Shown one piece after another: positions 24,512-61,178 of a DNA stretch of 64,000 bases. Both the position numbers and the translations under genes were made by a program. The stretch's first letter is position 1. Each line of letters opens with the position of its first letter. The stretch lies in contig JBAYKT010000004.1 in the NCBI GenBank assembly GCA_041664445.1, forward strand, positions 9,976-73,975, in the 5' to 3' direction. The DNA is from Patescibacteria group bacterium. GTDB lineage: Bacteria > Patescibacteriota > Patescibacteriia > Patescibacteriales > UBA12465. Below the pieces are notes generated by a model that saw only the letters and a program-made list of their open reading frames with translations, was not told the origin of the DNA and did not search any database.

Positions 24512-24515
24512 ATAT

Positions 24516-25241
24516 ATGAGAGGGATAATTTTATCAGGCGGTAGCGGTACTAGGTTGCGTCCGCTCACCAAGATAACCAGCAAGCAATTATTGCCGATTT
24601 ATAATCGACCGATGATTTATTATCCGCTTAATACTTTAATTCAAGCTGGTATCAAAGAAATTCTAATTATTGTTTCTCCGGAACGAGCTGGGGATTATCT
24701 AAATTTGCTTGGTTCCGGCAAAGAATTCGGTGTTAAGTTTACTTATGAAATTCAAGATAAGCCGGAAGGTTTAGCCCAGGCTTTTATTATCGGTCAGAAT
24801 TTTATTGACAAAGAAAGCGTCGCGATGATTTTGGGCGATAATATTTTTGAAGATGATTTTTCTGAAGATATTAAGAATTTTAAAGGCGGGGCTAAAGTCT
24901 TTGCTAAAGAAGTTCCGGACCCGGAGAGATTCGGCGTCGTTAAGTTTGGTGCGGATATGAAAGCGGAAAAAATTGTGGAAAAGCCACAAGAATTTTTAAG
25001 CAATTATGCGGTTACCGGGCTTTATGTTTATGACAATCGAATTGTGGAGGTTGCTAAGAATATTAAACCGAGCGCGCGTGGAGAATTGGAAATCACCGAT
25101 GTCAATAATTGGTATTTGGAAAAAGGCGAGCTGGAAGTCGCCATGGTGGATGGCGAATGGTTGGATGCTGGGACATTTGAGAGCCTTCTTAAAGCCCAAA
25201 ATTTTGCTAAAGAAAAACTGGACGGCAAAATGTTGATATAA
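24516..25241 (+). CDS. rmlA: Glucose-1-phosphate thymidylyltransferase (short form)
   Basis: GIILSGGSGTRLRPLT..SKQLLPIYN.PMIYYPL, typical of RmlA/RfbA-type nucleotidyltransferases. At 241 aa it could have a different sugar specificity. Confidence 0.75.
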   Translation: MRGIILSGGSGTRLRPLTKITSKQLLPIYNRPMIYYPLNTLIQAGIKEILIIVSPERAGDYLNLLGSGKEFGVKFTYEIQDKPEGLAQAFIIGQNFIDKESVAMILGDNIFEDDFSEDIKNFKGGAKVFAKEVPDPERFGVVKFGADMKAEKIVEKPQEFLSNYAVTGLYVYDNRIVEVAKNIKPSARGELEITDVNNWYLEKGELEVAMVDGEWLDAGTFESLLKAQNFAKEKLDGKMLI

Positions 25242-29402: not shown

Positions 29403-30599
29403 ATGAAAATAGGGATTGATGCTCGCTTCTATGGCCCAGTCGGCAAAGGTTTAGGCCGCTACACCCAAGAAGTAGTTGATAATATAATAATGATAAATGA
29501 AGCCCAAGGAGTCGATTCTCCCGGGGTTTTTGATTTTGTAATATTTTTAAGTCCTGATAATTTTGATGAGTTTATTTCTTCTAGTTCGCGAGTTAAAAAA
29601 GTTTTAATTAATATCCCTTGGTATTCTTGGAGCGAACAACTAAAACTCCCGTTCTATATTTGGCGCGAACATTTAGATTTAATGCATTTTCCTCATTTTA
29701 ATATTCCAATTTTAACGCCGACTAAATTTGTCATGACTCTTCATGACTTGATTTTGACTCATTTCCCGACAGTGCGCGCCACCACCAAAAGCAACTTTGT
29801 TTACTATTGGAAAAATTTAGCTTATCGCTTAGTTACTAAAACGGCGATTAGGAGAGCACAGCGTGTAATTACCGTTTCCGAGTTTACTGAGCGTGATATT
29901 ATTTATAATTTCCCGGAGGCCTCGGGGAAAATAACAGTTACTTACGAGGGAGTAGCTAACTTGAAGCGCGGACGCGATTCTTTGTTTGTTGCTAAATTAG
30001 ATAGCCGGGAAACTTTAGAAAAATATCATTTAGGAAACAATTTTTTGCTTTATGTTGGCAATGCTTATCCACACAAAAATTTGGAAGCCTTAATTAGAAC
30101 TTTTTCGCAGTTGCGCGCCGAGATGTCTGATTTAAAACTAGTTCTAGTTGGCAAGGAAGATTTTTTCTATAGCCGGATACATGATTATGCCAAATCTTTA
30201 AATTTATGGCAGAAGGAAAATATTAACAGTCCGGTAGTTTTTCCTGGCTATGTCCCCGATGCGCAATTAGAAATAATTTATCAAGCGGCCAAAGCTTATA
30301 TTTTTCCTTCTTTGTACGAGGGTTTCGGCTTGCCACCGCTAGAAGCGATGGCTAAAGGCTGTCCGGTCGCCAGTTCTGACCGGGCGAGCTTGCCGGAAAT
30401 TTTGGGAGACGCGGCGGTTTATTTTAATCCCGAGGATGATGACGATATGCTGGCTAAAATCAAACAGATTTTAAATAATCCAGATTTTAGAAATGAACTC
30501 ATTACTCGCGGTTTGAATAAAGTTAAAAATTATAGCTGGTGGGAATGCGCGCGTGAAACCTTCGCCGTTTATGAACAATCCTTAAAAGATAAAAAATGA
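29403..30599 (+). CDS. Family 4 (GT-B, GT1-clan) glycosyltransferase
   Basis: C-terminal EGFGLPPLEAMAKGCPV motif and overall GT4 layout. Confidence 0.85.
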   Translation: MKIGIDARFYGPVGKGLGRYTQEVVDNIIMINEAQGVDSPGVFDFVIFLSPDNFDEFISSSSRVKKVLINIPWYSWSEQLKLPFYIWREHLDLMHFPHFNIPILTPTKFVMTLHDLILTHFPTVRATTKSNFVYYWKNLAYRLVTKTAIRRAQRVITVSEFTERDIIYNFPEASGKITVTYEGVANLKRGRDSLFVAKLDSRETLEKYHLGNNFLLYVGNAYPHKNLEALIRTFSQLRAEMSDLKLVLVGKEDFFYSRIHDYAKSLNLWQKENINSPVVFPGYVPDAQLEIIYQAAKAYIFPSLYEGFGLPPLEAMAKGCPVASSDRASLPEILGDAAVYFNPEDDDDMLAKIKQILNNPDFRNELITRGLNKVKNYSWWECARETFAVYEQSLKDKK

Positions 30600-33124
30600 T
30601 TAACGAAACTAATAAAAATAAGCGAGTAGAAATGGAAAGAGCCCGATACTCTAGTTTTGTTGTAGATTTGCGACAGTCTTTAAACTCGGCAGCTAAGCCT
30701 AGCGTCTCCGAGAGTCATAAATTTGAATTTAAAAAACCAAAATTCTCTTTAGCTCATAAATTTAAAGGGCCAAAATTATCTCTTCGAGTTAATCTGCCGG
30801 CCATCCCTAGAATACATTTACATTTTCGCTCCCCGAGAAGTAATTTTTTTAGCTCCCATCATAATTTAAAGAAAAGTTTGTTTCGTATTTTTAAAACTCA
30901 GCGTCGCAGCGCTAATAATCTTTGGCGGGCGGCAGTTGTGGAGCAGCATCGTATTCTTGGCGCCCGGTTTAGATTTAACGGCCAAGAACGTTTAGCGGTT
31001 GCGGAAAACAAAGTTGTTTGGTACCGATCAATTTTATCCTTTGTTTTAGTTTTGATTTTTATAATTATTCCGATTAAACTTTTAGCCTATTTTGAAATTT
31101 TAGATTTTAAAAATTTAGAAACCAAAGTTTTAAGCAGTTCCAAAATGGCTTTTAATAATTTGGTGTCCGCCGCTAATTCAGTTTCAACCATGAATTTTCA
31201 GGAGGCGAGCACGGAATTTTCTCAAGCCGGAAATGGGTTTTTGCAGGCCCAAGAAGATTTAAGCGTTATTAGCGATTCTTTATTATTCTTAGCTTCTTTG
31301 TCTGGAGATCCAAAAATGAAATTAGCGGCTGAGAGTAAGCGATTTTTAGCGGCCGGAGCGCTTAGTTCTTCTTTGGGGAAAAATCTGGTGCTGGCGACCG
31401 ATAGTTTATTTAATCAACAATCAGATAATTTTTTAGGGGCTTTGGATGGTTTTGTTAAATATGGACGCTTGGCAGTGAACGATGCCAATGATTTAGATAA
31501 GATAATCAGTAAGATAAATCCTGATAATTTACCGGAAGAATATCGGGCAAAATTTTTAACTCTAGCCAGTCAAACTAAAAGTTTAAGTACTAATTTGGAT
31601 AATTTTGTTTCCGCCGCCGATAAAATGCGCGAAGTTTTTGGCTTAAGTAAAGATAAACGGTATTTACTTATTTTCCAAAATAATTCCGAGTTAAGAGCTT
31701 CCGGCGGATTTTTAGGAAGTTATGCGCTTTTGGATATGAGCGGCGGCAAGATTAAGAATTTAGAAGTGCCTGGTGGCGGTTCTTACGACACTGAAGGCGG
31801 GATGAGCGTTAAAGTTAAGGCGCCGCGCCCGCTATGGTTAGTCAATCCTCTCTGGCATTTTTGGGATGCTAATTGGTGGCCAAATTGGGTTAGAACTTCG
31901 CAAAATTTGATGTGGTTTTATGAGAAAAGCGGCGGTCCGACGGTTGACGGCGTTATTGGTATTACGCCGACAGTCGTTGAAAGACTTTTAGAGATTACCG
32001 GTCCAATTGATTTAACTGAAGATTATGGCCTAGTGATTGACAGCAACAATTTTTGGGAAACCGTTCAAACGGTAGTCGAGCATAAAAATTTAGAAAAAAC
32101 TAATCCGGGAGCTACGGCTGATTTTAAAGAGGCTAGCGGATTTAAGGAATCTACTACCACAATTGATTTTTCCGTGCCTCTAGAGCAGGGATTAGATAAG
32201 AACGTTGATAATAAGCCTAAAAAAATTATTGGTGATTTGATGGCTAAGATTTTGGAGACTCTGCCGCAAAAATTAAATCGCGATAGTTTGGTTAAAATAA
32301 TTTCTGCCTTTGAAGATAGTTTAGCGGAGAAGCAAATAATGTTTTATTTTACCGATCCGGCTTTAGAGTCGGAAGTGAGTGCGCGCAATTATGGCGGTGA
32401 AATAAAAAATGCCCCGCGTGATTATTTGTTAGTGGTCAATACTAATATTGCCGGCCAGAAGTCTGACCGAAAAATAATTGAAAAGATTGAGCAGTTATCG
32501 CAAGTTAGTTCGGATGGAAAAATTATCAATCAAGTTAAAATTATTAGAGCTCATTCCGGGCAAAAAAATGAAATTTTGACCGGCGTAAGAAATGTAAATT
32601 GGCTGCGAGTTTATGTACCCGCGGGCAGTCGCTTATTATCCGCTTCCGGGTTTCAAGTTCCTGATGCCGCCTATTTTGAAGAGCCGGATAGTTCTTGGGA
32701 AAGCAGCGAATTACTAGCCAATGAAGAAGCGGCTGTCACCGATCCCGTTAGCGGCGCTAAAATATATCAAGAAGACGGGAAAACTGTTTTTGCCGGCTGG
32801 GTAATGGTTGATCCTGGACAAACAGTGGAAATAAATTTAAGTTATGAGCTGCCATTTAATTTTTTTGAAGCCACTACTGATAATGGTTTTTTAAGCAGAT
32901 TAAACAATTTGTTAAACCCGGATTCTAAAAATTTATGGTCGTATTCGCTGCTAGTCCAAAAACAACCGGGAGCCGCCGCTAGCCAGTTCCATGGCCGTTT
33001 GGATATCGCCGAGCCGGTAGAAATTTTTTGGAAGCATCCGGATAATTTATCCTGGTCTAATGGTTGGGAAATTTTCGATGAAATAAGCGCCGATAAATAT
33101 TTTTCCGTGTTATTAAAAAAATAA
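30596..33124 (+). CDS. DUF4012-like membrane-anchored extracytoplasmic protein
   Basis: Basic N-terminal tail, one TM (ILSFVLVLIFIIIPIKLLAYF), and LIFQNNSELRASGGFLGSYALL, which matches my memory of the DUF4012 NN.E.R..GG..G box. The start overlaps the GT4 stop (ATGA). Confidence 0.75.
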   Translation: MINETNKNKRVEMERARYSSFVVDLRQSLNSAAKPSVSESHKFEFKKPKFSLAHKFKGPKLSLRVNLPAIPRIHLHFRSPRSNFFSSHHNLKKSLFRIFKTQRRSANNLWRAAVVEQHRILGARFRFNGQERLAVAENKVVWYRSILSFVLVLIFIIIPIKLLAYFEILDFKNLETKVLSSSKMAFNNLVSAANSVSTMNFQEASTEFSQAGNGFLQAQEDLSVISDSLLFLASLSGDPKMKLAAESKRFLAAGALSSSLGKNLVLATDSLFNQQSDNFLGALDGFVKYGRLAVNDANDLDKIISKINPDNLPEEYRAKFLTLASQTKSLSTNLDNFVSAADKMREVFGLSKDKRYLLIFQNNSELRASGGFLGSYALLDMSGGKIKNLEVPGGGSYDTEGGMSVKVKAPRPLWLVNPLWHFWDANWWPNWVRTSQNLMWFYEKSGGPTVDGVIGITPTVVERLLEITGPIDLTEDYGLVIDSNNFWETVQTVVEHKNLEKTNPGATADFKEASGFKESTTTIDFSVPLEQGLDKNVDNKPKKIIGDLMAKILETLPQKLNRDSLVKIISAFEDSLAEKQIMFYFTDPALESEVSARNYGGEIKNAPRDYLLVVNTNIAGQKSDRKIIEKIEQLSQVSSDGKIINQVKIIRAHSGQKNEILTGVRNVNWLRVYVPAGSRLLSASGFQVPDAAYFEEPDSSWESSELLANEEAAVTDPVSGAKIYQEDGKTVFAGWVMVDPGQTVEINLSYELPFNFFEATTDNGFLSRLNNLLNPDSKNLWSYSLLVQKQPGAAASQFHGRLDIAEPVEIFWKHPDNLSWSNGWEIFDEISADKYFSVLLKK

Positions 33125-33134
33125 AATAATATAT

Positions 33135-35135
33135 ATGGCCAGTGGTAAAAAAGTTAAAAAAATAATTAGAATTGATAAGGAAGAGAATTCCGGTTTGTCG
33201 GCTTTTGTTGAGCGCCCGGTTCCCACTGAAAACGAAGTGGAAAATTTTGAACGCGTAGTCGGGCAAGAAATCAGGCATCAAGAAATCGATTCTAAGTTGA
33301 CGGAAATTTATAGCGATAAAAAGGGGGCGCTAATCAATGTCAAAAAGATGACCGTCAAACGCCAGCAAATTTTTATGATTAAAATCCTTAAACAGCTATT
33401 TACCGTTGTTCTCTTGGCTCTCGCCGCTTATTTTTCTTATTTTTATTTTTTTAATCGCGGCAACGATATGAGCGGCTTGGAATTTTCTATTGTTGCTCCG
33501 GATAATATCAAAGCGGGTGAAGAATTTTCTTATCAAATAAAATATGATAATCCGACCAAATTTCCGCTAGCCAATATTCGTCTGGAACTTCAATATCCGG
33601 ATAATTTTATTTTTTCTTCCGCCTCCTTAACTCCTAGCAGTGGTAATTATGGTTTTAGTTTGCCTGATTTAGCTTCCGGAGCCAGTGGCTCTTTATTGGT
33701 AAGCGGCAAGATGATTTCTCCGGCCGATTCGGTTAATGTAATTTCCGGACGCCTGACTTATATTCCGTCTAATTTTTCTAGTGAATTTAAAAAAGAGAGC
33801 TCGGCGGCTACGGTCGTTAGCGGTATTGGTTTTCAAGTCGGAGTCGAAGCTTCTAATACGGCTTTTTTGGGGCAAAATAATGAAATAAATATTTCTTTTT
33901 TTCAAGTTGATGATAATCAGCTTGGAGATTTCAATATTAAATTTATACTGCCGGGAGACGGGGTAACTAGTTTTAATGATGTTAATCAGAGCGCAACCTC
34001 TTCCGCTATTGCTTCCACTAGTTCAAGCACTAGATTGCAAATCGTCGGCGAGGGAGCTAATACCTGGTTGGTCTCAGGGTTAAGCGTAGAAAACTCCAAT
34101 CAGAAACTAGCTTTTAATTATTTGTTTAAGAATCAGCCCGATAAAACTGATATAGTAATTAGATTAGAGAAGAAATTGGCTGACGGGCAAACCTATGTTT
34201 TTTGGGAAAAAACACTTAGCCCGGAAATTGTAAAAAGTGATTTGAATTTGACTCTATTTTTAAATGGTTCTAAAAATAACGGTGCGGCCAGTTTTGGTGA
34301 TACTTTAAATTATACCTTAAACTACAGTAATAAAGGCGCTAATAGTTTTAAAGACGCGGTAATTATGGCTGTGGTTGACGGTTATTTTTTAGATTTGTCC
34401 TCAATTCACGCGGATAAAAATGGCGAAACCCAAAATGGCAAAATAGTCTGGACTAAACAGGCATTGCCGGCACTGGCAGAAATTAAGCCTGGCGACGAAG
34501 GTGAAATAAATTTTTCTGTTAAGTTAAAAAATTATCAGGAAAGCGACTTCGGTAATAAATTGGAAATTTCCGCTTACTCGCAGTATGGAATTGATAATAA
34601 AAACGCGGCCGAGAACAATAAAAGCAATATCATTGTCACTAAGCTTAATAGTGATTTAGTTTTAGCCGAACAAGTCCGCTATTTTGACGATGATAATGCT
34701 CCGGTTGGTTCTGGACCTCTGCCACCAAAAGTGGGGGAGAAGAGCAGTTTTAAAGTTTATTGGACTGTTAAAAATAATTTGCACGAACTGAGCGCGACCA
34801 GTGTTATTCTGAATTTACCGGCCCAGGTTTCTTGGGATAATTCAGTGAGCGCCGGAGTCGGAAACTTATACTATGATAGTTCGCGCCATGCAGTCGTTTG
34901 GGATATCGGCCGCTTGCCGGTTTCTGTTTATCAAGTTGACGCTTCCTTTTCAATTTCGGTAATACCAAACTCGGCCGATCAAGATAAGATTTTAATCCTT
35001 TCTCCGGGCTCGGTTATTACCGCGCTTGATAACGAAACACAATCTACCATTACTAAAAAAACCAGCGCTAAAACTACCAAGTTGGAGGATGACGATATTG
35101 CTGGTTTAAATAATTCTGGTCGGGTATCTCAATAA
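33135..35135 (+). CDS. Membrane-anchored surface protein with repeated DUF11/CARDB-like beta domains
   Basis: Cytoplasmic N-terminus, TM (LFTVVLLALAAYFSYFYFF), then repeated blocks such as AGEEFSYQIKYDNPTKFPLANIRLELQYP and FGDTLNYTLNYSNKGANSFKDAVIMAVV. Confidence 0.65.
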   Translation: MASGKKVKKIIRIDKEENSGLSAFVERPVPTENEVENFERVVGQEIRHQEIDSKLTEIYSDKKGALINVKKMTVKRQQIFMIKILKQLFTVVLLALAAYFSYFYFFNRGNDMSGLEFSIVAPDNIKAGEEFSYQIKYDNPTKFPLANIRLELQYPDNFIFSSASLTPSSGNYGFSLPDLASGASGSLLVSGKMISPADSVNVISGRLTYIPSNFSSEFKKESSAATVVSGIGFQVGVEASNTAFLGQNNEINISFFQVDDNQLGDFNIKFILPGDGVTSFNDVNQSATSSAIASTSSSTRLQIVGEGANTWLVSGLSVENSNQKLAFNYLFKNQPDKTDIVIRLEKKLADGQTYVFWEKTLSPEIVKSDLNLTLFLNGSKNNGAASFGDTLNYTLNYSNKGANSFKDAVIMAVVDGYFLDLSSIHADKNGETQNGKIVWTKQALPALAEIKPGDEGEINFSVKLKNYQESDFGNKLEISAYSQYGIDNKNAAENNKSNIIVTKLNSDLVLAEQVRYFDDDNAPVGSGPLPPKVGEKSSFKVYWTVKNNLHELSATSVILNLPAQVSWDNSVSAGVGNLYYDSSRHAVVWDIGRLPVSVYQVDASFSISVIPNSADQDKILILSPGSVITALDNETQSTITKKTSAKTTKLEDDDIAGLNNSGRVSQ

Positions 35136-40965: not shown

Positions 40966-41841
40966 TTAAACGTCCATTTTTTTAAAAGCCTTAGCGGCTC
41001 GTTCACGTGATTTTTTTTGGCCGGAAATTTCGGCATAATCTCGGCGGCTAATTATTTCGCCGTTTTTAACGAACAGAAATCGGTAATGACCGGTACAAGA
41101 AAATTCAATCACAAATTTCGGCGCTTTGATAGCCTTAATAACATCTCGGATGTCCAGCAAGAAGGGATTTATTTCCCTAAAGCTAATAACGATTACCCCG
41201 CCAAATTCGCGCTGGCGATAGTTTAATCCCCGAAAGTTAGTTGTGGATAGAATTTTATTTTCCTCTTCCGTGCTCTTAATTAATTCAGGGCGCATTTTAG
41301 CTAGAGCTTCAATTTCAGGGTCATGTTTTTCGGTAACGATTTCCGTAATCATTTTACCTAAAAGTTTTAAGTAGCCGACGGTTTTGCCGACATTAAAATC
41401 AAACGCTTTTTGAACGGCGATTGCTTTTAAAATGCGGGCGGCCTCTAAATCGGCGGTTTCTTCATGGCCAAGTTCAATTAGACCGGCGCGTTTGTACAGA
41501 TATTCTGGAATGCTAATCCGGAGTTTTTTAAGCTCGTGAATATAGCCGGCAGAATCTCTCATGCCTTCAGACGTAAAAATTTTTCCGTCATAGCTCCAGA
41601 GCTTCAGGGTTTTACGCTGAGCGATAAATTCGGCCAGTCGTTTTTTTTCATCTTCGGTTTTTGGTTCTATTTCTAGAACGTAAACTTCTTCGCAACGAAG
41701 ACGATAGTTCATCACATCTTCAAACAGGCAGGGAATAATTTGAGCTCCCTTGGGTGTTTGCAGCATAATCTCGGTAGCCGCGAAAATTAATTCCGGCTTT
41801 TGAGAATTGATAAAAATTAAAACATGATTTGCTTTGTTCAT
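40966..41841 (-). CDS. Hypothetical protein, unassigned family (paralogue B of 461..1489)
   Basis: 291-aa ORF. N-terminus VLIFINSQKPELIFAATEIM and later blocks align collinearly with the 342-aa ORF at 461..1489. Confidence 0.75.
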   Translation of the reverse strand: MNKANHVLIFINSQKPELIFAATEIMLQTPKGAQIIPCLFEDVMNYRLRCEEVYVLEIEPKTEDEKKRLAEFIAQRKTLKLWSYDGKIFTSEGMRDSAGYIHELKKLRISIPEYLYKRAGLIELGHEETADLEAARILKAIAVQKAFDFNVGKTVGYLKLLGKMITEIVTEKHDPEIEALAKMRPELIKSTEEENKILSTTNFRGLNYRQREFGGVIVISFREINPFLLDIRDVIKAIKAPKFVIEFSCTGHYRFLFVKNGEIISRRDYAEISGQKKSRERAAKAFKKMDV

Positions 41842-47333: not shown

Positions 47334-49802
47334 ATGAACGGTAACGATAGTTCCGATCAAGCTAAATCCTCGTTGATTGCTAAAACAGTTTTGATAGTAA
47401 ATAGTAATTCTGCCAGCGATCCGCTTCATTCTAAAAAACTCTTTGTTCGCAAGGCTAAGAGCCTGGGCGTAAAAATAATTATTTTAAGCACTGAAGCTTC
47501 CACTTTTCAGCCTTATGCCGATTATTGTATAAACGCCAATACCTCTAATTATGCGGAATCTTTAGCCGCCCTGGAAACATTTTTACAGGAAAATCCTCAT
47601 CTTAGATTAGACGGAGTCGCTACTTTTTTAGAAGACGACGTTTTGTTGGTTTCTAAAATAGTAGATCGTTATCATTTAACCGGCACCCCTTTTAAAGTTG
47701 CTAATCGCGTTCGAAACAAGTTTTTATTTAGAGATTTTTGTGCGCATAATAATTTGCCGGTAGTTAAATTCAAGGAATTAAAAAACGCTCGCGACTTGGA
47801 GGAGGTCATCAAAAATTTTTCTTTTCCTTTGGTTGTTAAGCCGGCTTATGGCGCCGGCAGTGCTTTTGTAATGCGTGTTAATGACGAAGAGGAGCTTCGA
47901 GAGAGCTATGAATATATTAAAAAAGAAATGTCGCCCAAGATTGAATCGGCTTTAACGGATGGCTTGGCGGTTTTTGTGGAAGAATATATTGATGGCGACG
48001 AGGTTGATTTAGATATTTTGGTGCAAAATGGGAAAATAAAATTTTGCGCGATTTCTGATAATGGCCAAACTAAAGAACCATTTTTTATTGAAACGACTAG
48101 AATGACGCCCTCCAACTTACCTAATAAAAATCAGGCCCAGCTTTTAAGCATGGCCGATGAAACTTTGGAAAAATTGGGCATTCTTAACGGCTGTATTCAT
48201 TTTGAAGCTAAATCAACGCCGCAAGGCCCCATGCCTCTGGAAATTAATTTACGCCTGGGCGGCGATGAAGTCTATGCTAGCGTTAAGGCCGCTTGGCGCG
48301 TGGATTTAATTGAAAATTATTTAAAAATAGTTTGCGGTCTTTATATTCCTAAATTTGATTTTCCGGCCGGCCCTTATCAATATTTAGTGGCCGAGACTTT
48401 TTCTTCCGATCATTCCGGTATTTTAGTTAATCTGGAAATTGATGATCAATTGAAAAAAATGCCATTTGTCGAAGAGTTTCAGTTTGAGAAAAAAATTGGT
48501 GATTCAGTGATGGCGCCACCATATGGTTATGAATATCTAGGCTGGATTTTAGTTTCCGGACAAAATCCGCTTGATGCTCAAGATAATCTTCGATCCGCGA
48601 TTAAGTTAATCAGTTACGAGGTCGCTAAATTCCACCCCGCTTCGTCTATTGGAAAAACTGCTAGAAAAAATCCATTTTCTATTTCTACGGTTAACCGAGA
48701 GGTTTTGAAGCGCGGTTCTAAAATTGAAAAAATTAGACGCATGGCCGTGGCTAATCAGCGTAATCTGCATATTGGCGTGGCCTGCAATCTTTATGACGAA
48801 AATTCTCAAGACCAAGAAAGTTTGGTAGAAAATGATTTGACAGTTATCGGTAAAGAAATAGAAGTTGCGCTTAAAAGTCGGGGTTATAAAGTTAGTTTTT
48901 TTGATTTTAACGACCTGCCTAAAGTTTTTAACGAACTTAAAAATAGTGATGTTGATTTAGTTTTTAACGTCTGCGAACGTATTAATAATTCTAGTTTGCT
49001 GGAACCGCACGTCGCCTCCATTTTTGATGTTCTTCAAATTCCTTACACTGGCTCCAATCCATTTACCCTGGGTTTATGTATTGATAAAATTCGCGTTAAA
49101 AAACTTTTAAATTATCACAAGATTCCTACGCCGGAATGGGATTATATTTATTCCCTGGATGACGATGTTCGGGAAGACTTGCGCTATCCGTTGATTGTTA
49201 AACCGGCTAATACGGATAATTCTATTGGTATTACCAATGATTCAGTTGTTAGAAATGAAAAAGAGTTGCGTGTTCAATTAGAGAAGGTTATTAAAGAAAT
49301 CGGCCGCCCGGCTTTAATCGAAGAATATATCGATGGCGATGAATATGACGTGCCGGTTATCGGCTGGGATGATGATGATTTGCGCGTTTTACCGCTGACT
49401 CGCTCTATCTTTGACGCGCTTCCGGCCGACAAATGGCATATTTATCCTTTTGAAGCTAAATATAGCGATGATTCGATTTATGACCGTATTATTAGACAGC
49501 GGCCGCCAAAAAATATCAGCAAAAAACTGGAAGCGCTGTTGGGCGAAATCGCTTTGGACACTTATCGGATTTTAGATTGCCATGATTATGGCCGCGTGGA
49601 AATTAGAGTTGATAAAAATAATAATCCTTACGTCTTAGAACTCAATCCTAACCCTTCGCTTAATCAAGACGGTGTTTTTTCTGCTTCCGCCGAGGTTATT
49701 GGTTTAGACTATGCCGACTTTTTAGAAGAAATTATCCGCTTAGCCATTAAGCGTTATAAAGATAACCCGCCTTACTATCACTTACAGCCCAATATTCTTT
49801 AG
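47334..49802 (+). CDS. Fusion of two ATP-grasp ligases (L-amino-acid-ligase-like N-half + D-Ala-D-Ala-ligase-like C-half)
   Basis: N-half: NKFLFRDFC, FPLVVKPAYGAGSAFV, FVEEYIDGDEVDLDILV, LEINLRLGGDEV. C-half (from about nt 48762): LLEPHVASIFDVLQIPYTGSNP, CIDKIRVKKLL, YPLIVKPANTDNSIGI, LIEEYIDGDEYDVPVIG, YVLELNPNPSL. Confidence 0.8.
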   Translation: MNGNDSSDQAKSSLIAKTVLIVNSNSASDPLHSKKLFVRKAKSLGVKIIILSTEASTFQPYADYCINANTSNYAESLAALETFLQENPHLRLDGVATFLEDDVLLVSKIVDRYHLTGTPFKVANRVRNKFLFRDFCAHNNLPVVKFKELKNARDLEEVIKNFSFPLVVKPAYGAGSAFVMRVNDEEELRESYEYIKKEMSPKIESALTDGLAVFVEEYIDGDEVDLDILVQNGKIKFCAISDNGQTKEPFFIETTRMTPSNLPNKNQAQLLSMADETLEKLGILNGCIHFEAKSTPQGPMPLEINLRLGGDEVYASVKAAWRVDLIENYLKIVCGLYIPKFDFPAGPYQYLVAETFSSDHSGILVNLEIDDQLKKMPFVEEFQFEKKIGDSVMAPPYGYEYLGWILVSGQNPLDAQDNLRSAIKLISYEVAKFHPASSIGKTARKNPFSISTVNREVLKRGSKIEKIRRMAVANQRNLHIGVACNLYDENSQDQESLVENDLTVIGKEIEVALKSRGYKVSFFDFNDLPKVFNELKNSDVDLVFNVCERINNSSLLEPHVASIFDVLQIPYTGSNPFTLGLCIDKIRVKKLLNYHKIPTPEWDYIYSLDDDVREDLRYPLIVKPANTDNSIGITNDSVVRNEKELRVQLEKVIKEIGRPALIEEYIDGDEYDVPVIGWDDDDLRVLPLTRSIFDALPADKWHIYPFEAKYSDDSIYDRIIRQRPPKNISKKLEALLGEIALDTYRILDCHDYGRVEIRVDKNNNPYVLELNPNPSLNQDGVFSASAEVIGLDYADFLEEIIRLAIKRYKDNPPYYHLQPNIL

Positions 49803-49804
49803 CT

Positions 49805-50704
49805 ATGATTGAAATTAAATTAATTCAAGATTTGGAGCAGGCTAAAGAAATTTGGAATCGGCTTTCTAAAAACGAAACTCTCTATGACCGCTGGGATGTG
49901 CGTTATTGTTTTTATAAAAATGCGCCGGCGCCGCTTTATTTTTATGTCGCTTATGATGGCGGTGAGCCGGTGGCTTTATTGCCTTTGCAATATAGCGCCA
50001 AAGGAAACTATCTAGAATTTTTAGCCGAGTCGTTTATTGAAGGGAACCATCCTTTTTTTAAGCCGGGCTATGAATATTTATTGCCGGAATTATTTAAAAT
50101 TGATTGGCCGCATCCGGTTCAGATTTTTGATTTAGACGGCGCTGACCAATTTACCGCCGCGCTCCCACTGGAGGATTATGTTTACTATGTCGATGTTTCC
50201 GGGTTCAAAAATTTTGATGATTATTTGCTTTACGCATTTCCTAATGGGCGCAAGCGCTATAATTTTAAAAGATTATTTCCTATCCTAGAAAAAGAACATA
50301 CCTTAGAAATTGTTAAAGATGATTTTAGCGGTTTGGAGGCACTGATGGATTTGAATGTTAAAAATTTTGGAGACGAATCCTATTTGAATACCAAGGTTGA
50401 ACGCCAAGCTTTTTTTGATTTATTGCAATTGCCATTGGATTGGAAAATGATGGCCCTCACGGTTGATGGTCGTAAATTAGCCTATTCGCTCTCGGTAATT
50501 TACAACCAAGTGTATTATTATTTAATTGTCGGCTCGGATATTAGCGAGGTTAAAGATGCCTTTAAATATTTGACCAAGGCTAATATGGAATTAGCCATTA
50601 ACAGTGGCGCTAAGATTTTTGATTGTTCGCTAGGGGATTGTAATTGGAAACAGTATTGGCATTTAAACAAAAAACCTCAATATAAGTTCGAAAAAGGCCT
50701 TTAA
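49805..50704 (+). CDS. CelD/FemAB-like GNAT-fold protein (Acetyltransf_6-like)
   Basis: 2-nt gap after the ATP-grasp fusion. The C-terminal AKIFDCSLGDCNWKQYWHL resembles the fDfG.G...YK..W box of CelD/BioF2-like acyltransferases. Assignment is from memory of the family pattern. Confidence 0.6.
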   Translation: MIEIKLIQDLEQAKEIWNRLSKNETLYDRWDVRYCFYKNAPAPLYFYVAYDGGEPVALLPLQYSAKGNYLEFLAESFIEGNHPFFKPGYEYLLPELFKIDWPHPVQIFDLDGADQFTAALPLEDYVYYVDVSGFKNFDDYLLYAFPNGRKRYNFKRLFPILEKEHTLEIVKDDFSGLEALMDLNVKNFGDESYLNTKVERQAFFDLLQLPLDWKMMALTVDGRKLAYSLSVIYNQVYYYLIVGSDISEVKDAFKYLTKANMELAINSGAKIFDCSLGDCNWKQYWHLNKKPQYKFEKGL

Positions 50705-54395: not shown

Positions 54396-55424
54396 ATGGC
54401 TAAAACGCTAAATATCTTGCAAAAAATAGAAGCCGCCGGTCTAGTTGGTCGCGGCGGCGCTCGTTATCCAACGGCTAAAAAATGGTCTAGTTTTGCGCAG
54501 TCTTTAAAGAATAGGGAAATCGGTTATATTGTAATTAATGGTGCCGAAGGTGAGCCGGGAATAAAAAAAGATGCTTATTTACTGGCCGAAAAAACTGAAG
54601 CGGTTGTTAATGGCATCTATTTGGCGGATCAATTTTTTGGCGGCAATAAGATAAAAAAGATTTATTTTTTCTTGAAGCACGAGTATCATCGCGATTATTC
54701 TAAAAAGATAAAAGAGATTCTGGATACTAAAAAATATCGCGCTTTATCCAAGAAAATAGAATTTTTTATTAAACCGGAATCCCCGATGTATATTTGCGGC
54801 GAAGAAACGGCGATTATTAATATTATTTCCGGTCGTCGCGCGGAACCGCGTTTAAAGCCGCCTTTTCCAGCGGCTAGTGGCATTCATAATCACCCGACCT
54901 TAGTTAACAATGTAGAAACTTTTTATGACATTAGCTTAGTCGGCGCTGATAATTATGAAGGACATCGTCTTTATACTCTGGGCGGAGCCGTCAAGCATCG
55001 TGGTGTTTTTTCATTGCCGGCAGTTATGAGCGTGCGCGAAGTTTTACAAGCGACTAACAATTATCCGACTTTTGATTTTTTTGTGATGACCGGCGGTGAA
55101 GTTTGCGGCGAATTATTGCGTTCCGACCAATTGCAAGCTCCGGTTGAAGGTTCCGCTTTAGTGATGGTTTTTGATAAACAGAAAACTGATTTAAAAAAAT
55201 TGTTAGCCTATTGGTTGAAATTTTACGAAGCGGAAAGTTGCGGCTTGTGTGCTGCTTGCCGCGAAGGGAGTTATCGTTTTCGGGAACTGAGCCAACAAGC
55301 AAATTATGATCAGCAGCTTTTTATTGATTTGTTGGATAATTTAGAAGATTCCAGTTTCTGTGCGCTCGGCTCTTCCTTGGCACTCACCGTTAAAAGCATG
55401 ATGGAAAATATAAATAAAAAATAA
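54396..55424 (+). CDS. Minimal NuoF/HydB-like NADH-binding flavoprotein subunit
   Basis: GRGGARYPTAKKW (FMN site), INGAEGEPG, YICGEETAIINIISG..EPRLKPPFPA, VNNVETF, ESCGLCAACREG (4Fe-4S). No thioredoxin-like or ferredoxin extensions. Confidence 0.85.
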   Translation: MAKTLNILQKIEAAGLVGRGGARYPTAKKWSSFAQSLKNREIGYIVINGAEGEPGIKKDAYLLAEKTEAVVNGIYLADQFFGGNKIKKIYFFLKHEYHRDYSKKIKEILDTKKYRALSKKIEFFIKPESPMYICGEETAIINIISGRRAEPRLKPPFPAASGIHNHPTLVNNVETFYDISLVGADNYEGHRLYTLGGAVKHRGVFSLPAVMSVREVLQATNNYPTFDFFVMTGGEVCGELLRSDQLQAPVEGSALVMVFDKQKTDLKKLLAYWLKFYEAESCGLCAACREGSYRFRELSQQANYDQQLFIDLLDNLEDSSFCALGSSLALTVKSMMENINKK

Positions 55425-55428
55425 AACT

Positions 55429-56217
55429 ATGGAAAACACAAATGAAAAATCGGCTGTAATTTATAGCAAGCCGAAATTAACCCCCGTTTTTGAAATTTTT
55501 AGAGAGGCGCTTAGTATTTGGTGGAAAAATTTGGATAAAATTTTAAAAATTTATTGGGAAGGAATTAAGCCGACCCTTATTCCTCTCGGAGTAACCGCTG
55601 TCCTTGGTATTTTAGCGGTGGTTATTGATGGACCATTGGGGACTGTTTTTAAGATCACCATGTCTATTTCTGCCGCCGTTACGCTTGTTTTGGCAATTTA
55701 TTTTTGGACTCGCTCTTATGCCGGCATCTTTTTGTTAGTGAAAAAAAACTATAAAGATGAAGCGACAGAAACTTATAAAGAAACTAAAAAATTATTCTGG
55801 CCTTATATTGGCTTGTCTTTGTTAACCGGTTTATTGATTTTATGCTGGATGTTGCTTTTAATAATTCCGGGCATTATTTTTGCCTTTATTTATAGCTTTG
55901 CCGTTTATGCTTTCTTTTTTGAAGATAAAAGAGGGATGAAAGCGGTTCGCCGTAGCCGTGAAATTATCAAAGGTTATTTTTGGGAAGTCATGGGGCGCTT
56001 ATGCTTTTTAGGATTGATTGCTTGGATATTTATGATGATTATTTCTATTCCGAGTGAAATTTATCTTTCGAATCAGCCGCTGGCTCTCGTACCGGAAAAT
56101 AGCGCGGTGGTGCAAGGCTGGAACTTTTTTACCCAAGTCATTAGTTGGCTGGTTGGACCGATTGCTATGTTGTTTACTTATAAAATTTATACGGATTTAA
56201 TAAAAATTAAGAAATAA
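55429..56217 (+). CDS. Polytopic membrane protein, unknown function
   Basis: 5-6 hydrophobic helices. Layout resembles DUF975/GDPD-membrane-domain-type proteins. Tightly packed between the nuoF-like gene and hydA (4- and 11-nt gaps). Confidence 0.6.
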   Translation: MENTNEKSAVIYSKPKLTPVFEIFREALSIWWKNLDKILKIYWEGIKPTLIPLGVTAVLGILAVVIDGPLGTVFKITMSISAAVTLVLAIYFWTRSYAGIFLLVKKNYKDEATETYKETKKLFWPYIGLSLLTGLLILCWMLLLIIPGIIFAFIYSFAVYAFFFEDKRGMKAVRRSREIIKGYFWEVMGRLCFLGLIAWIFMMIISIPSEIYLSNQPLALVPENSAVVQGWNFFTQVISWLVGPIAMLFTYKIYTDLIKIKK

Positions 56218-56228
56218 TTATTTTTTAG

Positions 56229-57935
56229 ATGATTATTAAAATCAATAACAAAAAATACAGTGCTGCCAAGGGCCAAACTATTTTAGATGTTGCCCGTGAA
56301 CATGGTATAAAAATTCCTAGTCTTTGCCATCATCCCGATTTAGACGTGCGGGCGAGTTGCCGTATTTGCGTTGTGGAAATAACCGGACGCCAAAAATTAG
56401 CGACCGCCTGTTCAACCGAGCTTGAAGGGGGGATGGAAATATATACTGATTCCGCGCGCGTACAAAAATCACGCAATCTTAATATTGAATTAATTTTTGC
56501 CTCTCATGTCGAAAAATGTTCAAGCTGCACCCTGCGTTTTAATTGTGATTTATTGGAATTAGCGCGGGAATACGGTATTAAGATTACCCGTTTTCCCGAT
56601 CGTAAAGTAAAGCGTAAAACCTATAAATTTGCTAACGCCGTCGAAATAGACGGAACGCAATGTATTGATTGCGGCAACTGTGTTGAAGCTTGCCATAATC
56701 AAGGTATAGATTTCTTAAAAATTTCCGGTCATGGTCACGAGCAAGAGATTCAGCCAGTAAAAGCTAAAGGCAGTGCTTGTATTTATTGCGGGCAATGCGC
56801 TAATGCTTGTCCGGTCGCGGCCGCGCAAGAACAGGGTGAATGGCAAAATGTGGAAGCGGCTCTAAAAAATAAAAAGAAAATTGTGGTTGCTCAATTCGCA
56901 CCTTCAATTCGTGTTTCTTTGGGGGAAGAATTTGGTTTACCCTATGGTTATAACTGCGCCAAGAAAATTAATACCGCTTTGAAGGAACTTGGCTTTAATT
57001 ATATTTTTGATGTTAATTTTGGGGCAGATATTACGACAATGACCGAAGCGGAAGAATTGATGGCGAGAATAAATGACAAAAAAGCAGTTTTTCCAATGAC
57101 CACGTCCTGTTGTCCAGCTTGGGTGGCTTACGCTGAATTTTATCATCCGGAATTATTGCCGAATTTGACCACGGCGCGTTCACCGCATATTCATAGTGCC
57201 GGGGCGATTAAAAGTTATTTCGCCAAGCAGAAGGGAATTAATCCTAAAAATATTGAAGTTGTTTCCATCGTCCCCTGTACCTCCAAAAAATATGAGGCGG
57301 CGCGGCCGGAATTAACATATAAAGGAAAACCTTTAGTTGATCATGTTTTGACAACCAGAGAATTGGCTTTTATTTTAAAAAAGAATAAGATTGATTTGGC
57401 AAAGTTGCCGGAGAGCGAAGTTGACCCGATATTTAATGATGGTTCGGGCGCGGCGGCCATTTATGGCGCTTCTGGCGGGGTAATGGAATCAGCACTAAGA
57501 ACAGCCGTTTCTCTAGCTTGCGCGCAAAAAAAGACTAAAAATAAATTATGTGCCAGTCGTTTAGAATTCAAGGAAGTTCGAGGATTAAAAGGATTTAAAG
57601 AGGCAACGGTTGATTTGGCCGGTAAAAAAGTGCGGGTCGGTGTGGTCAATGGAATTGCTCATTTTGAAGCCCTCTTGCCTAAACTGCATAAATACCATTA
57701 TATTGAAGTGATGGCTTGTCCTGGCGGTTGTCTTGGCGGTGGCGGCCAACCTTTGCCGACAACTAACGCGATTCGACAAAAGCGCTTGGAAGGTATGTAC
57801 GCGATTGATAAGGGTAAGACCAAGATGAGACGCGCTCATGAAAATCAGCCGATGGTGGAATATTATCAGTGGGTTAAGAATAATAAATTAGCAAGCAAGT
57901 TATTACATACCAAGTTTAAAGCGACGAACAAGTAA
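56229..57935 (+). CDS. hydA: [FeFe]-hydrogenase catalytic subunit
   Basis: N-terminal 2Fe-2S fold (CHHPDLDVRASCRICVVE), two ferredoxin-type CxxCxxCxxxCP motifs, H-cluster signatures TSCCPAW, VPCTSKKYEA and EVMACPGGCLGGGGQP. Confidence 0.9.
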   Translation: MIIKINNKKYSAAKGQTILDVAREHGIKIPSLCHHPDLDVRASCRICVVEITGRQKLATACSTELEGGMEIYTDSARVQKSRNLNIELIFASHVEKCSSCTLRFNCDLLELAREYGIKITRFPDRKVKRKTYKFANAVEIDGTQCIDCGNCVEACHNQGIDFLKISGHGHEQEIQPVKAKGSACIYCGQCANACPVAAAQEQGEWQNVEAALKNKKKIVVAQFAPSIRVSLGEEFGLPYGYNCAKKINTALKELGFNYIFDVNFGADITTMTEAEELMARINDKKAVFPMTTSCCPAWVAYAEFYHPELLPNLTTARSPHIHSAGAIKSYFAKQKGINPKNIEVVSIVPCTSKKYEAARPELTYKGKPLVDHVLTTRELAFILKKNKIDLAKLPESEVDPIFNDGSGAAAIYGASGGVMESALRTAVSLACAQKKTKNKLCASRLEFKEVRGLKGFKEATVDLAGKKVRVGVVNGIAHFEALLPKLHKYHYIEVMACPGGCLGGGGQPLPTTNAIRQKRLEGMYAIDKGKTKMRRAHENQPMVEYYQWVKNNKLASKLLHTKFKATNK

Positions 57936-59388: not shown

Positions 59389-60123
59389 ATGAAAAAAATT
59401 TTATTTTTTTTGGGGCTAATTATTTTAGCCGCTTCGTTATCGGCTTGCTCGACTAAAACTCAAAAGGCAGAGGAAAATAAGCCGGAGAGTGAAGGCTTGG
59501 AAGCCAATGTTATTAATAATTCAACTAATGATGACGCTGTTGTTTTGAATGAACCCCCGGCTATTAGTCCGGAGACTATCAAAGACCCAGTAGTCACTAA
59601 TCCTATGAGAACTTTAAACAATCACTTAGATTTAGCAGCGGAATATTCCCAGGCGATTATCAAAACCAGCTTAGGTAATATTACCGTTAAATTTTATGGC
59701 AACGATTCGCCGATTACCGTTAATAATTTTATGAACTTGGTACAAAAAGGTTTCTATAATGAAACTAAGTTTCATCGAGTGATTAAAGATTTTATGATTC
59801 AGGGTGGCGATCCAAACAGTAAGAATACCGATACCAGCCTATACGGCACTGGCGGCCCAGGTTATAAGTTTGCCGATGAATTTAATTCTCACAAGCTAGT
59901 TGCCGGTTCTTTGGCCATGGCTAATTCTGGGGCAGATACCAATGGTTCCCAGTTCTTTATTGTTACCGCCGCTGAAACTCCTTGGCTTGACGGCAAGCAT
60001 GTAAATTTTGGAGAGGTTATTAGCGGGATGGATGTTGTTAAGAAGATTGAAGCTTTAGAAACTGGTGAACGTGATATTCCAACCGAAGCGGTAATTATTA
60101 CTTCTGTTGAACTTAAGAAATAG
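59389..60123 (+). CDS. Cyclophilin-type peptidyl-prolyl isomerase, lipoprotein
   Basis: Lipobox [41 protein letters not shown]. Confidence 0.9.
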
Positions 60124-60146
60124 TCAAAATATCTGATATTAAGTAA

Positions 60147-60176
60147 AAAATCGCGGTTTAGAATCGCGGTTTTTTG
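60147..60176 (+). terminator. Terminator after the gap...ppi gene string
   Basis: AAAATCGCG - 9-nt loop - CGCGGTTTT followed by TTG. Confidence 0.55.
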
Positions 60177-60191
60177 TTGTTTTAGTTGTTG

Positions 60192-60220
60192 TTGACTTAA
60201 GTAATAAAAAATGTTATTAT
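60192..60220 (+). promoter_or_regulatory. Promoter of 60270..61124
   Basis: TTGACT (60192-97), 17 nt including TGt, TATTAT (60215-20). Confidence 0.55.
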
Positions 60221-60269: not shown

Positions 60270-61124
60270 ATGAAAAAAATCATCGTAATTTTTGTATTTT
60301 TAGCTGCCATAAATTTGGCCGCTTTCGCTCAGATTAAGAATTTAGTTGCCACTGATGACAGTTCTTTGGTCGTTAATAATGTCTATGTTGGGCTTCTGAA
60401 TGCCAGCACCTTTGATTCTGATTTGAATGTTGAGCATAGCTATGATTTCCGCATTGGTGGTAATTTAACCTGGCAACTTTCTTCTTGGATGAAGGCTAAA
60501 GCTTTAGTCGTTTACGACCGGGCAAATGGAGAGGATAAGAATATAAATTTTTTCTCTCTCAAGCTTCATTCTCGAAATGAAAAGATGGGTTTAGAGTTTG
60601 GCCGCATGCCGACTCTATCCACGGAAATGATGCCAATCCCGCTTAGTCCCGGAGGACATTTTAGTACTTGGGCTGAAAGCCAAATTATTGGGCCGGCTAT
60701 CGGCGCTAAAACAACTTTCAAAATTAAAGAAAGTTTGTTTGGTTTTGGGATTGCCAGGCGTGGTGATAAACCTGAATACCATTTAAAATTGGAATCTGGA
60801 GTAATCTCTTCTGCCGCTTCTTATAGCACCGCCACCAAGATGTTTGAATCTGTTTTTTCTTTCAAGCCGGATTATGTCTACAGCGTTTCTGTATTTCAAA
60901 ATGTCGGTTCCTCTAATCTTTTAGCTAATTATACTAGTGTGCCTATTGGCCATAATTTGGAAGTCTGTATAGACGCCGGTTATTGTTTTGAAGAGCAAAA
61001 ATTTCGGAAACTGGAATTTGGAGTTATTAAAACTTTTCAAGCTAATTGGCTCAAAGGGCTACTGTATGTTTGCTATACGCAAGAGGATAACAGATTGAAT
61101 GCTTTTTTATTGTTTCATATTTAA
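60270..61124 (+). CDS. Secreted beta-rich protein with outer-membrane-beta-barrel-like sequence pattern
   Basis: Signal peptide MKKIIVIFVFLAAINLAAFA/Q. About 12 segments of strictly alternating hydrophobic/polar residues (YDFRIGGNLTWQL, LFGFGIARR, YVYSVSVFQ, LEVCIDAGYCFE, KLEFGVIKTFQ). Confidence 0.6.
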   Translation: MKKIIVIFVFLAAINLAAFAQIKNLVATDDSSLVVNNVYVGLLNASTFDSDLNVEHSYDFRIGGNLTWQLSSWMKAKALVVYDRANGEDKNINFFSLKLHSRNEKMGLEFGRMPTLSTEMMPIPLSPGGHFSTWAESQIIGPAIGAKTTFKIKESLFGFGIARRGDKPEYHLKLESGVISSAASYSTATKMFESVFSFKPDYVYSVSVFQNVGSSNLLANYTSVPIGHNLEVCIDAGYCFEEQKFRKLEFGVIKTFQANWLKGLLYVCYTQEDNRLNAFLLFHI

Positions 61125-61146: not shown

Positions 61147-61178
61147 AAAACCTCGTTTCCAGGCGGGGTTTTTTATTT
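61147..61178 (+). terminator. Terminator after 60270..61124
   Basis: AAAACCTCG - 8-nt loop - CGGGGTTTT followed by TTTATTT. Confidence 0.65.

Follow-up and report, generated by a model that had tools for sequence, protein, structure and literature searches.

General diffusion porins such as OmpF, OmpC, OmpU, OmpK36 and the R. blasticus porin (7prn/3prn) are homotrimers in which each chain forms a barrel of 16 antiparallel strands, and the long loop L3, between strands β5 and β6, is folded into the lumen where it faces a cluster of basic residues on the barrel wall. Together with BamA, porin-type β-barrels are the genomic hallmark of a second membrane. Outer-layer channels are also known from lineages without the classical Omp85 pathway, namely MspA of mycobacteria and PorA/PorH of corynebacteria, and these provide a precedent for channels that do not depend on the β-barrel assembly machinery (BAM). 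The Candidate Phyla Radiation (CPR, Patescibacteria) makes up a large share of bacterial diversity, and its placing among the lineages that lost the outer membrane feeds reconstructions of the ancestral envelope. Here a predicted porin-fold protein, belonging to a family traced so far only to the CPR, is described. The gene lies in a stretch of 64,000 nucleotides (the window; positions 9,976 to 73,975 of contig JBAYKT010000004.1, assembly GCA_041664445.1), where the open reading frame (ORF) that a preliminary description had placed at 60270-61124 was recovered exactly, on the plus strand and with 284 codons. The product is identical to NCBI MFA6416878.1, from a metagenome-assembled genome (MAG) labelled 'Patescibacteria group bacterium'.

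AlphaFold2 was run on an alignment of 67 sequences that included homologues down to approximately 22% identity, and strands were assigned by DSSP. The protein was predicted to form a closed 16-stranded β-barrel, with a best predicted local distance difference test score (pLDDT) of 93.6 and a predicted template-modelling score of 0.84; all five models had pLDDT values of 90.6-93.6 and identical topology. A run with 11 close homologues gave an all-β model of the same topology at moderate confidence (pLDDT 75.5). In the model, a signal helix and a short strand (residues 22-26) are followed by 16 long strands spanning residues 33-283, and this whole part of the mature chain is used by the one barrel, with no additional soluble domain. 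Successive strands are connected by 5, 2, 2, 5, 29, 2, 2, 2, 4, 5, 2, 2, 4, 2 and 4 residues, so that both rims carry turns of merely 2-5 residues except at the 29-residue loop between β5 and β6. The preliminary description had proposed an outer-membrane-type β-barrel from about a dozen amphipathic β-segments. The barrel was borne out, and the eight peptides then quoted coincide with β2, β4, β7, β8, β11, β13, β14 and β15; the count of segments was too low, the model having 16 strands.

A Foldseek search against the PDB gave OmpU, OmpF, OmpC, OmpK36 and the R. blasticus porin as the best and only strong matches (E~3e-8, template-modelling scores 0.54-0.65, identity 5-13%), and the top 50 matches were all porins. 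A search of the same type against viral structures gave weak matches to generic outer-membrane protein (OMP) barrels only, with no phage link. Across the 67 homologues the share of hydrophobic residues is 69% on one face of the strands and 34% on the other, and that of charged residues 7% and 24%, respectively; for the window protein the hydrophobic shares are 72% and 33% and the charged shares 9% and 30%. The hydrophobic/polar alternation reported previously also exceeds that of shuffled sequences, the mean face difference within the predicted strands being 2.05 compared with 1.48±0.27 (z=2.1, 42/2000 shuffles). Because a 16-stranded barrel is too wide to bury its hydrophobic face inside, this face would point outward and the charged face would line a water-filled lumen, as in the porins. 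Conserved residues of the polar face are the basic R61, K147, R164 and K247 and the acidic E169, D235 and E249.

The 29-residue loop (residues 114-142) occupies the place of L3 and is the best-conserved segment of the family, with the pattern T-x-x-T-E-x-R-P-x-P-x-[TS]-x-x-G-[QH]-F-E-T-W...I-P-G. Conservation at and next to the loop reaches 100% for G111, 87% for R121, 92% for P122, 93% for P124, 88% for F131 and 89% for E132. By analogy with L3, the loop would sit in the barrel lumen as a constriction. The conservation of lumen and loop residues indicates purifying selection. In the window's own clade M121 and S132 (60630-60632 and 60663-60665) replace the arginine and the glutamate found at these positions in most of the family; their joint loss looks like a broken salt-bridge pair, and the replacement may alter the charge of the constriction.

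The barrel protein, known by prediction only, shares with the general porins the 16 antiparallel strands, the long β5-β6 loop at the position of L3, a charged lumen, a hydrophobic belt and a Sec signal peptide, and at 264 mature residues it is close in size to the smallest porins (289 for that of R. blasticus). It differs from them in having no sequence similarity detectable with Pfam, NCBIfam or a profile search of PDB sequences, in the shortening of all loops except the L3-like one to 2-5 residues, in a family C-terminus of Leu or Ile and not Phe, and in its occurrence in a phylum regarded as lacking both an outer membrane and BAM.

The Sec signal peptide ending in AFA/Q that had been described is present, and its cleavage columns are supported across 140 family members, with Ala, Ser or Gly at position -1 in 134/140 and Gln at +1 in 133/140. 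This region is modelled as a helix (residues 2-14) followed by a low-confidence linker. OMPs of the Bacteroidota follow a 'Q-rule', that is, Gln at +1 after signal peptidase I cleavage, and the peptide had been compared with theirs for its style (MKK-hydrophobic-A-x-A/Q). The likeness stands, but no Bacteroidota homologue of the barrel protein was found, the remaining secreted proteins of the window do not start with Q, and no glutaminyl cyclase was seen in the window; the Gln at +1 is therefore a feature of the family and not a property of the host secretome. At the opposite end, the observation that AFLLFHI is not a classical aromatic β-signal proved correct. The last residue is Leu or Ile in 114 of the 140 members and Phe in three, and the alternating hydrophobic positions are kept, with Gly or Ala at -6 and not at -5, whereas the classical BAM β-signal has a terminal aromatic residue and Gly at -5.

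A word-indexed sequence search identified 10 relatives (best E=1e-180), and an exhaustive search of 1.84 billion cluster representatives identified 155 at E<=1e-3 and 90 at E<=1e-10, giving a family of at least 155 clusters at 50% identity. Nearly all of these representatives are 270-300 aa long and are covered over their full length. The window protein had no match in Pfam. Among the 67 aligned members there were three weak matches to OMP_b-brl (PF13505; best E=9e-4), a family of OmpA-like barrels with 8 and not 16 strands, and one weak match to OprB, with none to Porin_1 (PF00267) or Porin_4 (PF13609). NCBIfam gave nothing usable for the window protein and the 67 homologues, the sole match (TDE1717 family, E=1.1) being confined to the signal peptide, and the family profile had one chance match among all PDB sequences (E=0.17). 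Full-text searching found no literature description of a porin-like family in the CPR. Because sequence membership fails for every curated porin family, the aromatic β-signal is lacking and a diderm context with BAM would be contrary to current views of the phylum, the protein is classed as a new family that has the porin fold in a cellular context where none is expected, and is kept apart from the known porin families.

Members at 100%, 56% and 37% identity carry the NCBI label 'Patescibacteria group bacterium', a copy at 52% identity is found in a GTDB representative genome of 'Candidatus Falkowbacteria', and one at 26% comes from a 'Minisyncoccia bacterium' (NCBI). The most divergent member examined, at 23% identity, lies on a contig (L012:1-20933) in which in-frame TGA codons occur in every called gene, at 3-25 per gene, and TAA terminates all of the genes. 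Four of the nine TGA codons of its barrel gene fall on alignment columns where Gly is the first or second commonest residue and none on Trp-rich columns, indicating genetic code 25 (UGA=Gly), the code used by Gracilibacteria and Absconditabacteria. The database entry for this protein (P0143) had been translated with UGA=Trp. No family member was placed outside the CPR, and no named diderm genome occurs among the 155 representatives, most members being without an organism name; the placing of distant members relied on source names and genomic contexts, the scan of GTDB genomes having been made with the close alignment. As far as it can be traced, the family is thus CPR-only, spanning at least three classes (Falkowbacteria-like, Minisyncoccia and the UGA=Gly lineage), with one barrel copy per locus and no paralogue in the window.

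The genome had been taken for a monoderm, CPR-like one. The assignment to the CPR agrees with the label of the MAG and with BipA/TypA of the window, for which the only named matches at 75-93% identity were 'Patescibacteria group bacterium' and 'Candidatus Falkowbacteria bacterium'. Several of these matches lie on contigs of 0.6-0.98 Mb, fitting genomes of approximately 1 Mb. Mis-binning or contamination was considered and rejected on the basis of the 150-kb contig, the BipA agreement and three other MAGs with shared gene order. The barrel gene is ordinary for the window in GC content (0.382 versus 0.401±0.022), GC content at third codon positions (0.351 versus 0.374±0.018) and codon-usage distance (0.85 versus 0.78±0.17), and the gene order CCA-adding enzyme, cyclophilin lipoprotein, barrel, IMPDH, PurA (adenylosuccinate synthase) is kept at 56% barrel identity. 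Since all placeable homologues are also from the CPR, these data do not support a recent event of the lateral acquisition that had been raised as an option. The gene is native and vertically inherited in a Falkowbacteria-like (ABY1-type) CPR bacterium. On this computational evidence, high confidence is placed in the barrel fold, the family, a host from the CPR and the native status of the gene.

Essentially all ORFs of the window of at least 100 aa, together with the genes called in 8.3 kb and 5 kb beyond its ends, were scanned against Pfam. In these ~77 kb of the source contig none of the genes was of the Omp85/POTRA, Lpt, Lol, Tol-Pal, TolC, secretin or OmpA type, and the same outer-membrane genes were likewise not found in eight annotated related loci (~150 kb); what was inspected is a minority of a ~1 Mb genome. 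The check for Bam and Lpt genes proposed earlier accordingly came out negative for that part of the contig and those loci only. The window and its flanks encode glycolysis, an FeFe-hydrogenase cluster, the dcw cluster, tRNA synthetases, dTDP-rhamnose genes, glycosyltransferases and large surface proteins. In the left flank (L014:540-4337, same contig) there is a MacB-type ATP-binding cassette exporter (ATPase and FtsX/MacB permease) together with a periplasmic adaptor of 622 aa. The adaptor is of the YknX type, which monoderm (Gram-positive) Firmicutes have, and no TolC-like partner is nearby. The CPR are regarded as lacking an outer membrane (PMC10160955, PMC12102498, PMC11809585, 10.64898/2026.03.03.709456): comparative genomics places them among the lineages that lost it (PMC10160955), the type IV secretion system found in them is the monoderm one (PMC12102498), and a single membrane with murein has been inferred for Patescibacterium, the type genus of ABY1, filed by NCBI under Falkowbacteria (PMC11809585).

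In the distant, Minisyncoccia-type subfamily a multi-pass membrane protein of ~400 aa is encoded 19-45 bp upstream of the barrel gene, on the same strand, at four of four loci. These four proteins are 32-44% identical to one another and none has a Pfam match. Membrane protein and barrel look like a conserved two-gene operon, and the pairing suggests a complex anchored in the symbiont itself. The upstream protein could represent a novel type of insertase or partner for the barrel. Neither the window and its flanks nor the Falkowbacteria-type loci contain it. Among other neighbours, a class-I S-adenosylmethionine (SAM) methyltransferase gene immediately follows that of the barrel in two CPR lineages that are unrelated to each other (L007:10963-11706 and L012:11055-11681), and a TrmB-family regulator upstream of it at L011 and L012; both may be recurrent neighbours.

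The reading that we prefer, and to which we give an even chance when it is taken as a whole, is that of a CPR-native, BAM-independent channel of porin fold in a lipid layer outside the cytoplasmic membrane. The precursor would be exported by Sec and its signal peptide removed, after which the mature chain would fold, without the BAM machine, into a lipid-bearing layer beyond the cytoplasmic membrane and act as a passive, water-filled solute channel. By analogy with the porins, the function as a channel is fairly probable. A location in the outer layer of the CPR cell itself is proposed more tentatively and rated below even; the preferred site would be a layer or patch of the envelope that contains lipid and has escaped recognition, comparable to those of the mycomembrane porins and the Thermotoga toga. 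The cell's own envelope is slightly preferred because the neighbourhood is a stable housekeeping one, non-BAM porins have a precedent in the Terrabacteria, and the barrel is paired with a membrane protein in the Minisyncoccia-type subfamily. Unassisted insertion would be made easier by the near absence of loops on either rim, and OMPs are able to insert spontaneously in vitro into thin, fluid or defect-rich bilayers (PMC13067283).

In this proposal the barrel resembles MspA and PorA/PorH as a putative channel of an outer lipid layer in a lineage without the classical Omp85 pathway. It is a single chain of 16 strands, unlike MspA, an octameric goblet with two strands per subunit, and unlike PorA/PorH, which are small helical peptides, and to our knowledge no mycolic-acid layer is present in the CPR. 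In the Thermotoga toga, arrays of Ompβ-type β-barrels support small lipid patches (PMC10160955), and an exported barrel could similarly reside in a proteinaceous, low-lipid sheath without a full outer membrane. The Thermotogae differ in that they possess BamA and are tethered by SLH domains; for the barrel, no partner of the SLH or Ompα type was seen.

Several points weigh against a channel of this kind. We know of no electron microscopy of any CPR cell in which lipid was reported beyond the wall as a separate layer. The distribution of the family is patchy, since its 155 clusters at 50% identity are few in relation to CPR diversity, and it is therefore not a universal envelope component. Each locus has a single barrel gene, fewer than a true outer membrane would normally require. 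The machinery scan covered ~77 kb and ~150 kb, so that a cryptic diderm envelope keeps some probability. The outward hydrophobic face and the lumenal loop rest on geometry and porin analogy, and the clade of the window lacks the membrane-protein partner.

Of the alternatives, the one that survives best, already among the options of the preliminary description, is a host-directed pore, in which the barrel would be inserted into the outer (or only) membrane of a host at the site of attachment and serve there for feeding or as a toxin. A patchy distribution like that of the family is typical of accessory genes for host interaction, and the family is carried by the code-25 lineage, a group whose cultured members prey on diderm hosts. 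The CPR are episymbionts with minimal biosynthesis (PMC12206443, PMC8080830). With turns of 2-5 residues no large hydrophilic loop would have to cross a bilayer, which could ease insertion from either side, and the N-terminal Q could cyclise and so protect an extracellular protein. Such a pore would recall α-haemolysin and aerolysin, which are secreted and become pores in the membrane of another cell; however, these toxins are soluble, oligomerising monomers that contribute one hairpin each, whereas the barrel is complete in one chain and lacks a soluble domain, and a single-chain 16-stranded barrel has no known precedent as a toxin. Furthermore, an unfolded OMP would have to cross the wall of the symbiont and then enter the lipopolysaccharide leaflet from outside, the gene lies among housekeeping genes in stable order and not in secretion or pilus loci, and in the distant subfamily the partner of the barrel is an integral membrane protein that belongs to the symbiont. 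A host-directed pore is for these reasons considered unlikely.

An ordinary diderm OMP, the porin of lineages that have a conventional outer membrane and BAM, is considered improbable. In its fold, its signal peptide and the alternation of hydrophobic residues in its C-terminal strand the protein does resemble a BAM substrate, inspection covered about half of the 150-kb contig and short flanks elsewhere, and one preprint loosely terms the Patescibacteria 'Gram-negative' (10.1101/2024.05.28.596244). Against this, the scans described above recovered no outer-membrane genes from the ~77 kb of the contig or the ~150 kb of related loci, the adjacent efflux adaptor is of the Gram-positive YknX type, and there is one barrel gene per locus with no paralogues. 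The literature on the loss of the outer membrane in the CPR, their monoderm type IV secretion system and the single membrane inferred for the ABY1 type genus points the same way (PMC10160955, PMC12102498, PMC11809585).

A gated channel in the cytoplasmic membrane of the symbiont, forming an uptake device with the membrane partner, would use the bilayer closest to the Sec exit and would be in keeping with the conserved multi-pass partner of the distant subfamily; such a pore could be plugged by the N-terminal segment and the internal loop, which is conserved. An open 16-stranded pore would, however, collapse the ion gradients of an energy-transducing membrane, and the partner gene is missing from the window's clade. 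We know of no β-barrel channel established in any bacterial cytoplasmic membrane, and this alternative is rated as quite improbable.

A soluble, non-membrane β-fold, such as a lipocalin or jelly-roll binding protein, had also been put forward. The pLDDT of the initial 11-sequence model and the lack of a sequence match to porin families are in its favour, but the five 67-sequence models agree on a closed barrel of the same 16 strands, the leading PDB matches are porins only, and every strand has a hydrophobic face that a barrel of this width would be unable to bury. The soluble fold was rejected on these grounds and is largely refuted, with very little probability left to it. Least credible of all, and likewise largely refuted, is a recent acquisition from Bacteroidota or another diderm of a gene carried without a role: the Q-rule-like signal peptide speaks for it, and against it stand the native composition and codon usage, a gene order that is kept at a barrel identity as low as 56%, the CPR origin of every placeable homologue, those with an identity of only 23% included, the purifying selection indicated by lumen and loop residues, and the lack of a named diderm among the 155 representatives.

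A conserved, vertically inherited family with a porin fold predicted at high confidence, which as far as traced is confined to the CPR, does not sit neatly with the monoderm picture. Three alternatives follow from it: an unrecognised outer lipid layer in some CPR, a porin used without BAM in a monoderm, or delivery to a host. That a minimal porin with 16 strands, from a family peculiar to the CPR, is produced and assembled independently of BAM in at least three of their classes, for either an unnoticed outer lipid layer or a host feeding pore, is a possibility that we place somewhat below even. If there were such a layer, the view of the whole radiation as monoderm and without outer-membrane biology would be revised; a host feeding pore would represent a new mode of nutrient acquisition by episymbionts. 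Each of the three alternatives bears on how ultra-small episymbionts with almost no biosynthesis gain nutrients, and on the question of a strict requirement for Omp85 in β-barrel insertion. Since the mature protein has only 264 residues and its loops are minimal, it should be easy to express, refold and study in bilayers, and it is a possible compact nanopore scaffold.

Table 1 Positions of the barrel gene, its parts and its neighbours. Coordinates are those of the window unless a related locus (L number) is given; strands are those of the AlphaFold2 model, and transcription signals are from consensus scans.
Feature	Position	Strand	Remarks
Barrel ORF	60270..61124	+	ATG start, TAA stop, 284 aa; NCBI MFA6416878.1, precursor of porin-fold β-barrel protein
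Sec (signal peptidase I) signal peptide, residues 1-20	60270..60329	+	MKKIIVIFVFLAAINLAAFA/Q; cleavage AFA/Q, read from sequence
Mature N-terminal segment, residues 21-32	60330..60365	+	QIKNLVATDDSS; short strand 22-26; Q21 and D30-S31 conserved
β-strands 1-5, residues 33-113	60366..60608	+	DSSP on AlphaFold2 model
29-residue loop between β5 and β6, residues 114-142	60609..60695	+	where porin loop L3 lies; AlphaFold2 model and family alignment
β-strands 6-16, residues 143-283	60696..61118	+	DSSP on AlphaFold2 model; turns of 2-5 residues
C-terminal motif AFLLFHI	61101..61121	+	family consensus [GA]-Y-L-F-[IVL]-[HYN]-[LI]-COOH
Lipoprotein cyclophilin-type peptidyl-prolyl isomerase	59389..60123	+	LSAC lipobox; ~70-residue low-complexity linker; directly upstream of barrel gene
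Terminator-like stem-loop and T-run	60142..60178	+	after cyclophilin gene; consensus scan
Sigma-70-like promoter TTGACT-17-TATTAT	60192..60220	+	TG before -10; 10/12 positions match; consensus match only
Terminator-like stem-loop (11 pairs) and T-run	61147..61172	+	23 nt past stop codon; consensus scan
IMPDH gene	ATG at 61273		downstream of barrel gene
Upstream membrane protein, Minisyncoccia-type subfamily	L009:95-1306	+	immediately 5' of barrel gene
Upstream membrane protein, Minisyncoccia-type subfamily	L010:8703-9959	+	immediately 5' of barrel gene
Upstream membrane protein, Minisyncoccia-type subfamily	L016:2513-3715	+	immediately 5' of barrel gene
Upstream membrane protein, Minisyncoccia-type subfamily	L017:8761-9978	+	immediately 5' of barrel gene

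The promoter and the terminator that the preliminary description had assigned to the barrel gene were both located (Table 1), and the unit would be self-contained because a further terminator-like element closes the upstream cyclophilin gene. In this AT-rich region five promoter-like sites were counted compared with 3.6±1.9 in shuffled sequences, and three terminator-like sites compared with 1.0±1.1. As neither motif is significantly enriched, the signals, and with them a self-contained transcription unit, are graded as plausible and not as proven. An Rfam scan of the window gave no matches.

The adjacency of the cyclophilin and barrel genes is kept in relatives at 56% barrel identity, and in diderms extracytoplasmic prolyl isomerases help OMP folding. 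As a functional partner of the barrel the cyclophilin lipoprotein was nevertheless set aside as context, since a terminator separates the two genes.

Several other loci of the window were noted. At 54396-57935 (+) the genes for a NuoF-like flavoprotein, for a multi-pass membrane protein of 262 aa that has no firm family assignment and for the large subunit of an FeFe-hydrogenase form a cluster that is kept in relatives (L001, L003). At 47334-50704 (+) an 822-aa protein with two ATP-grasp modules, a D-Ala-D-Ala-ligase-like C-terminal part and an L-amino-acid-ligase domain, is followed by a 299-aa Acetyltransf_6 (FemAB-like) protein, and the two may together form a peptide-ligase system, or one for peptidoglycan side chains, of an unusual kind. 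A glycosyltransferase, an 842-aa DUF4012 protein and a 666-aa DUF11/DUF7619 surface-repeat protein at 29403-35135 (+) look like a cell-surface cluster, near the dTDP-rhamnose genes at 23651-25241. Finally, two unannotated, cytoplasmic-looking proteins at 461-1489 (-) and 40966-41841 (-) show weak collinear similarity over their first ~120 residues, with a PELIF..A..IM motif (pairwise E=0.002), and may be distant paralogues.

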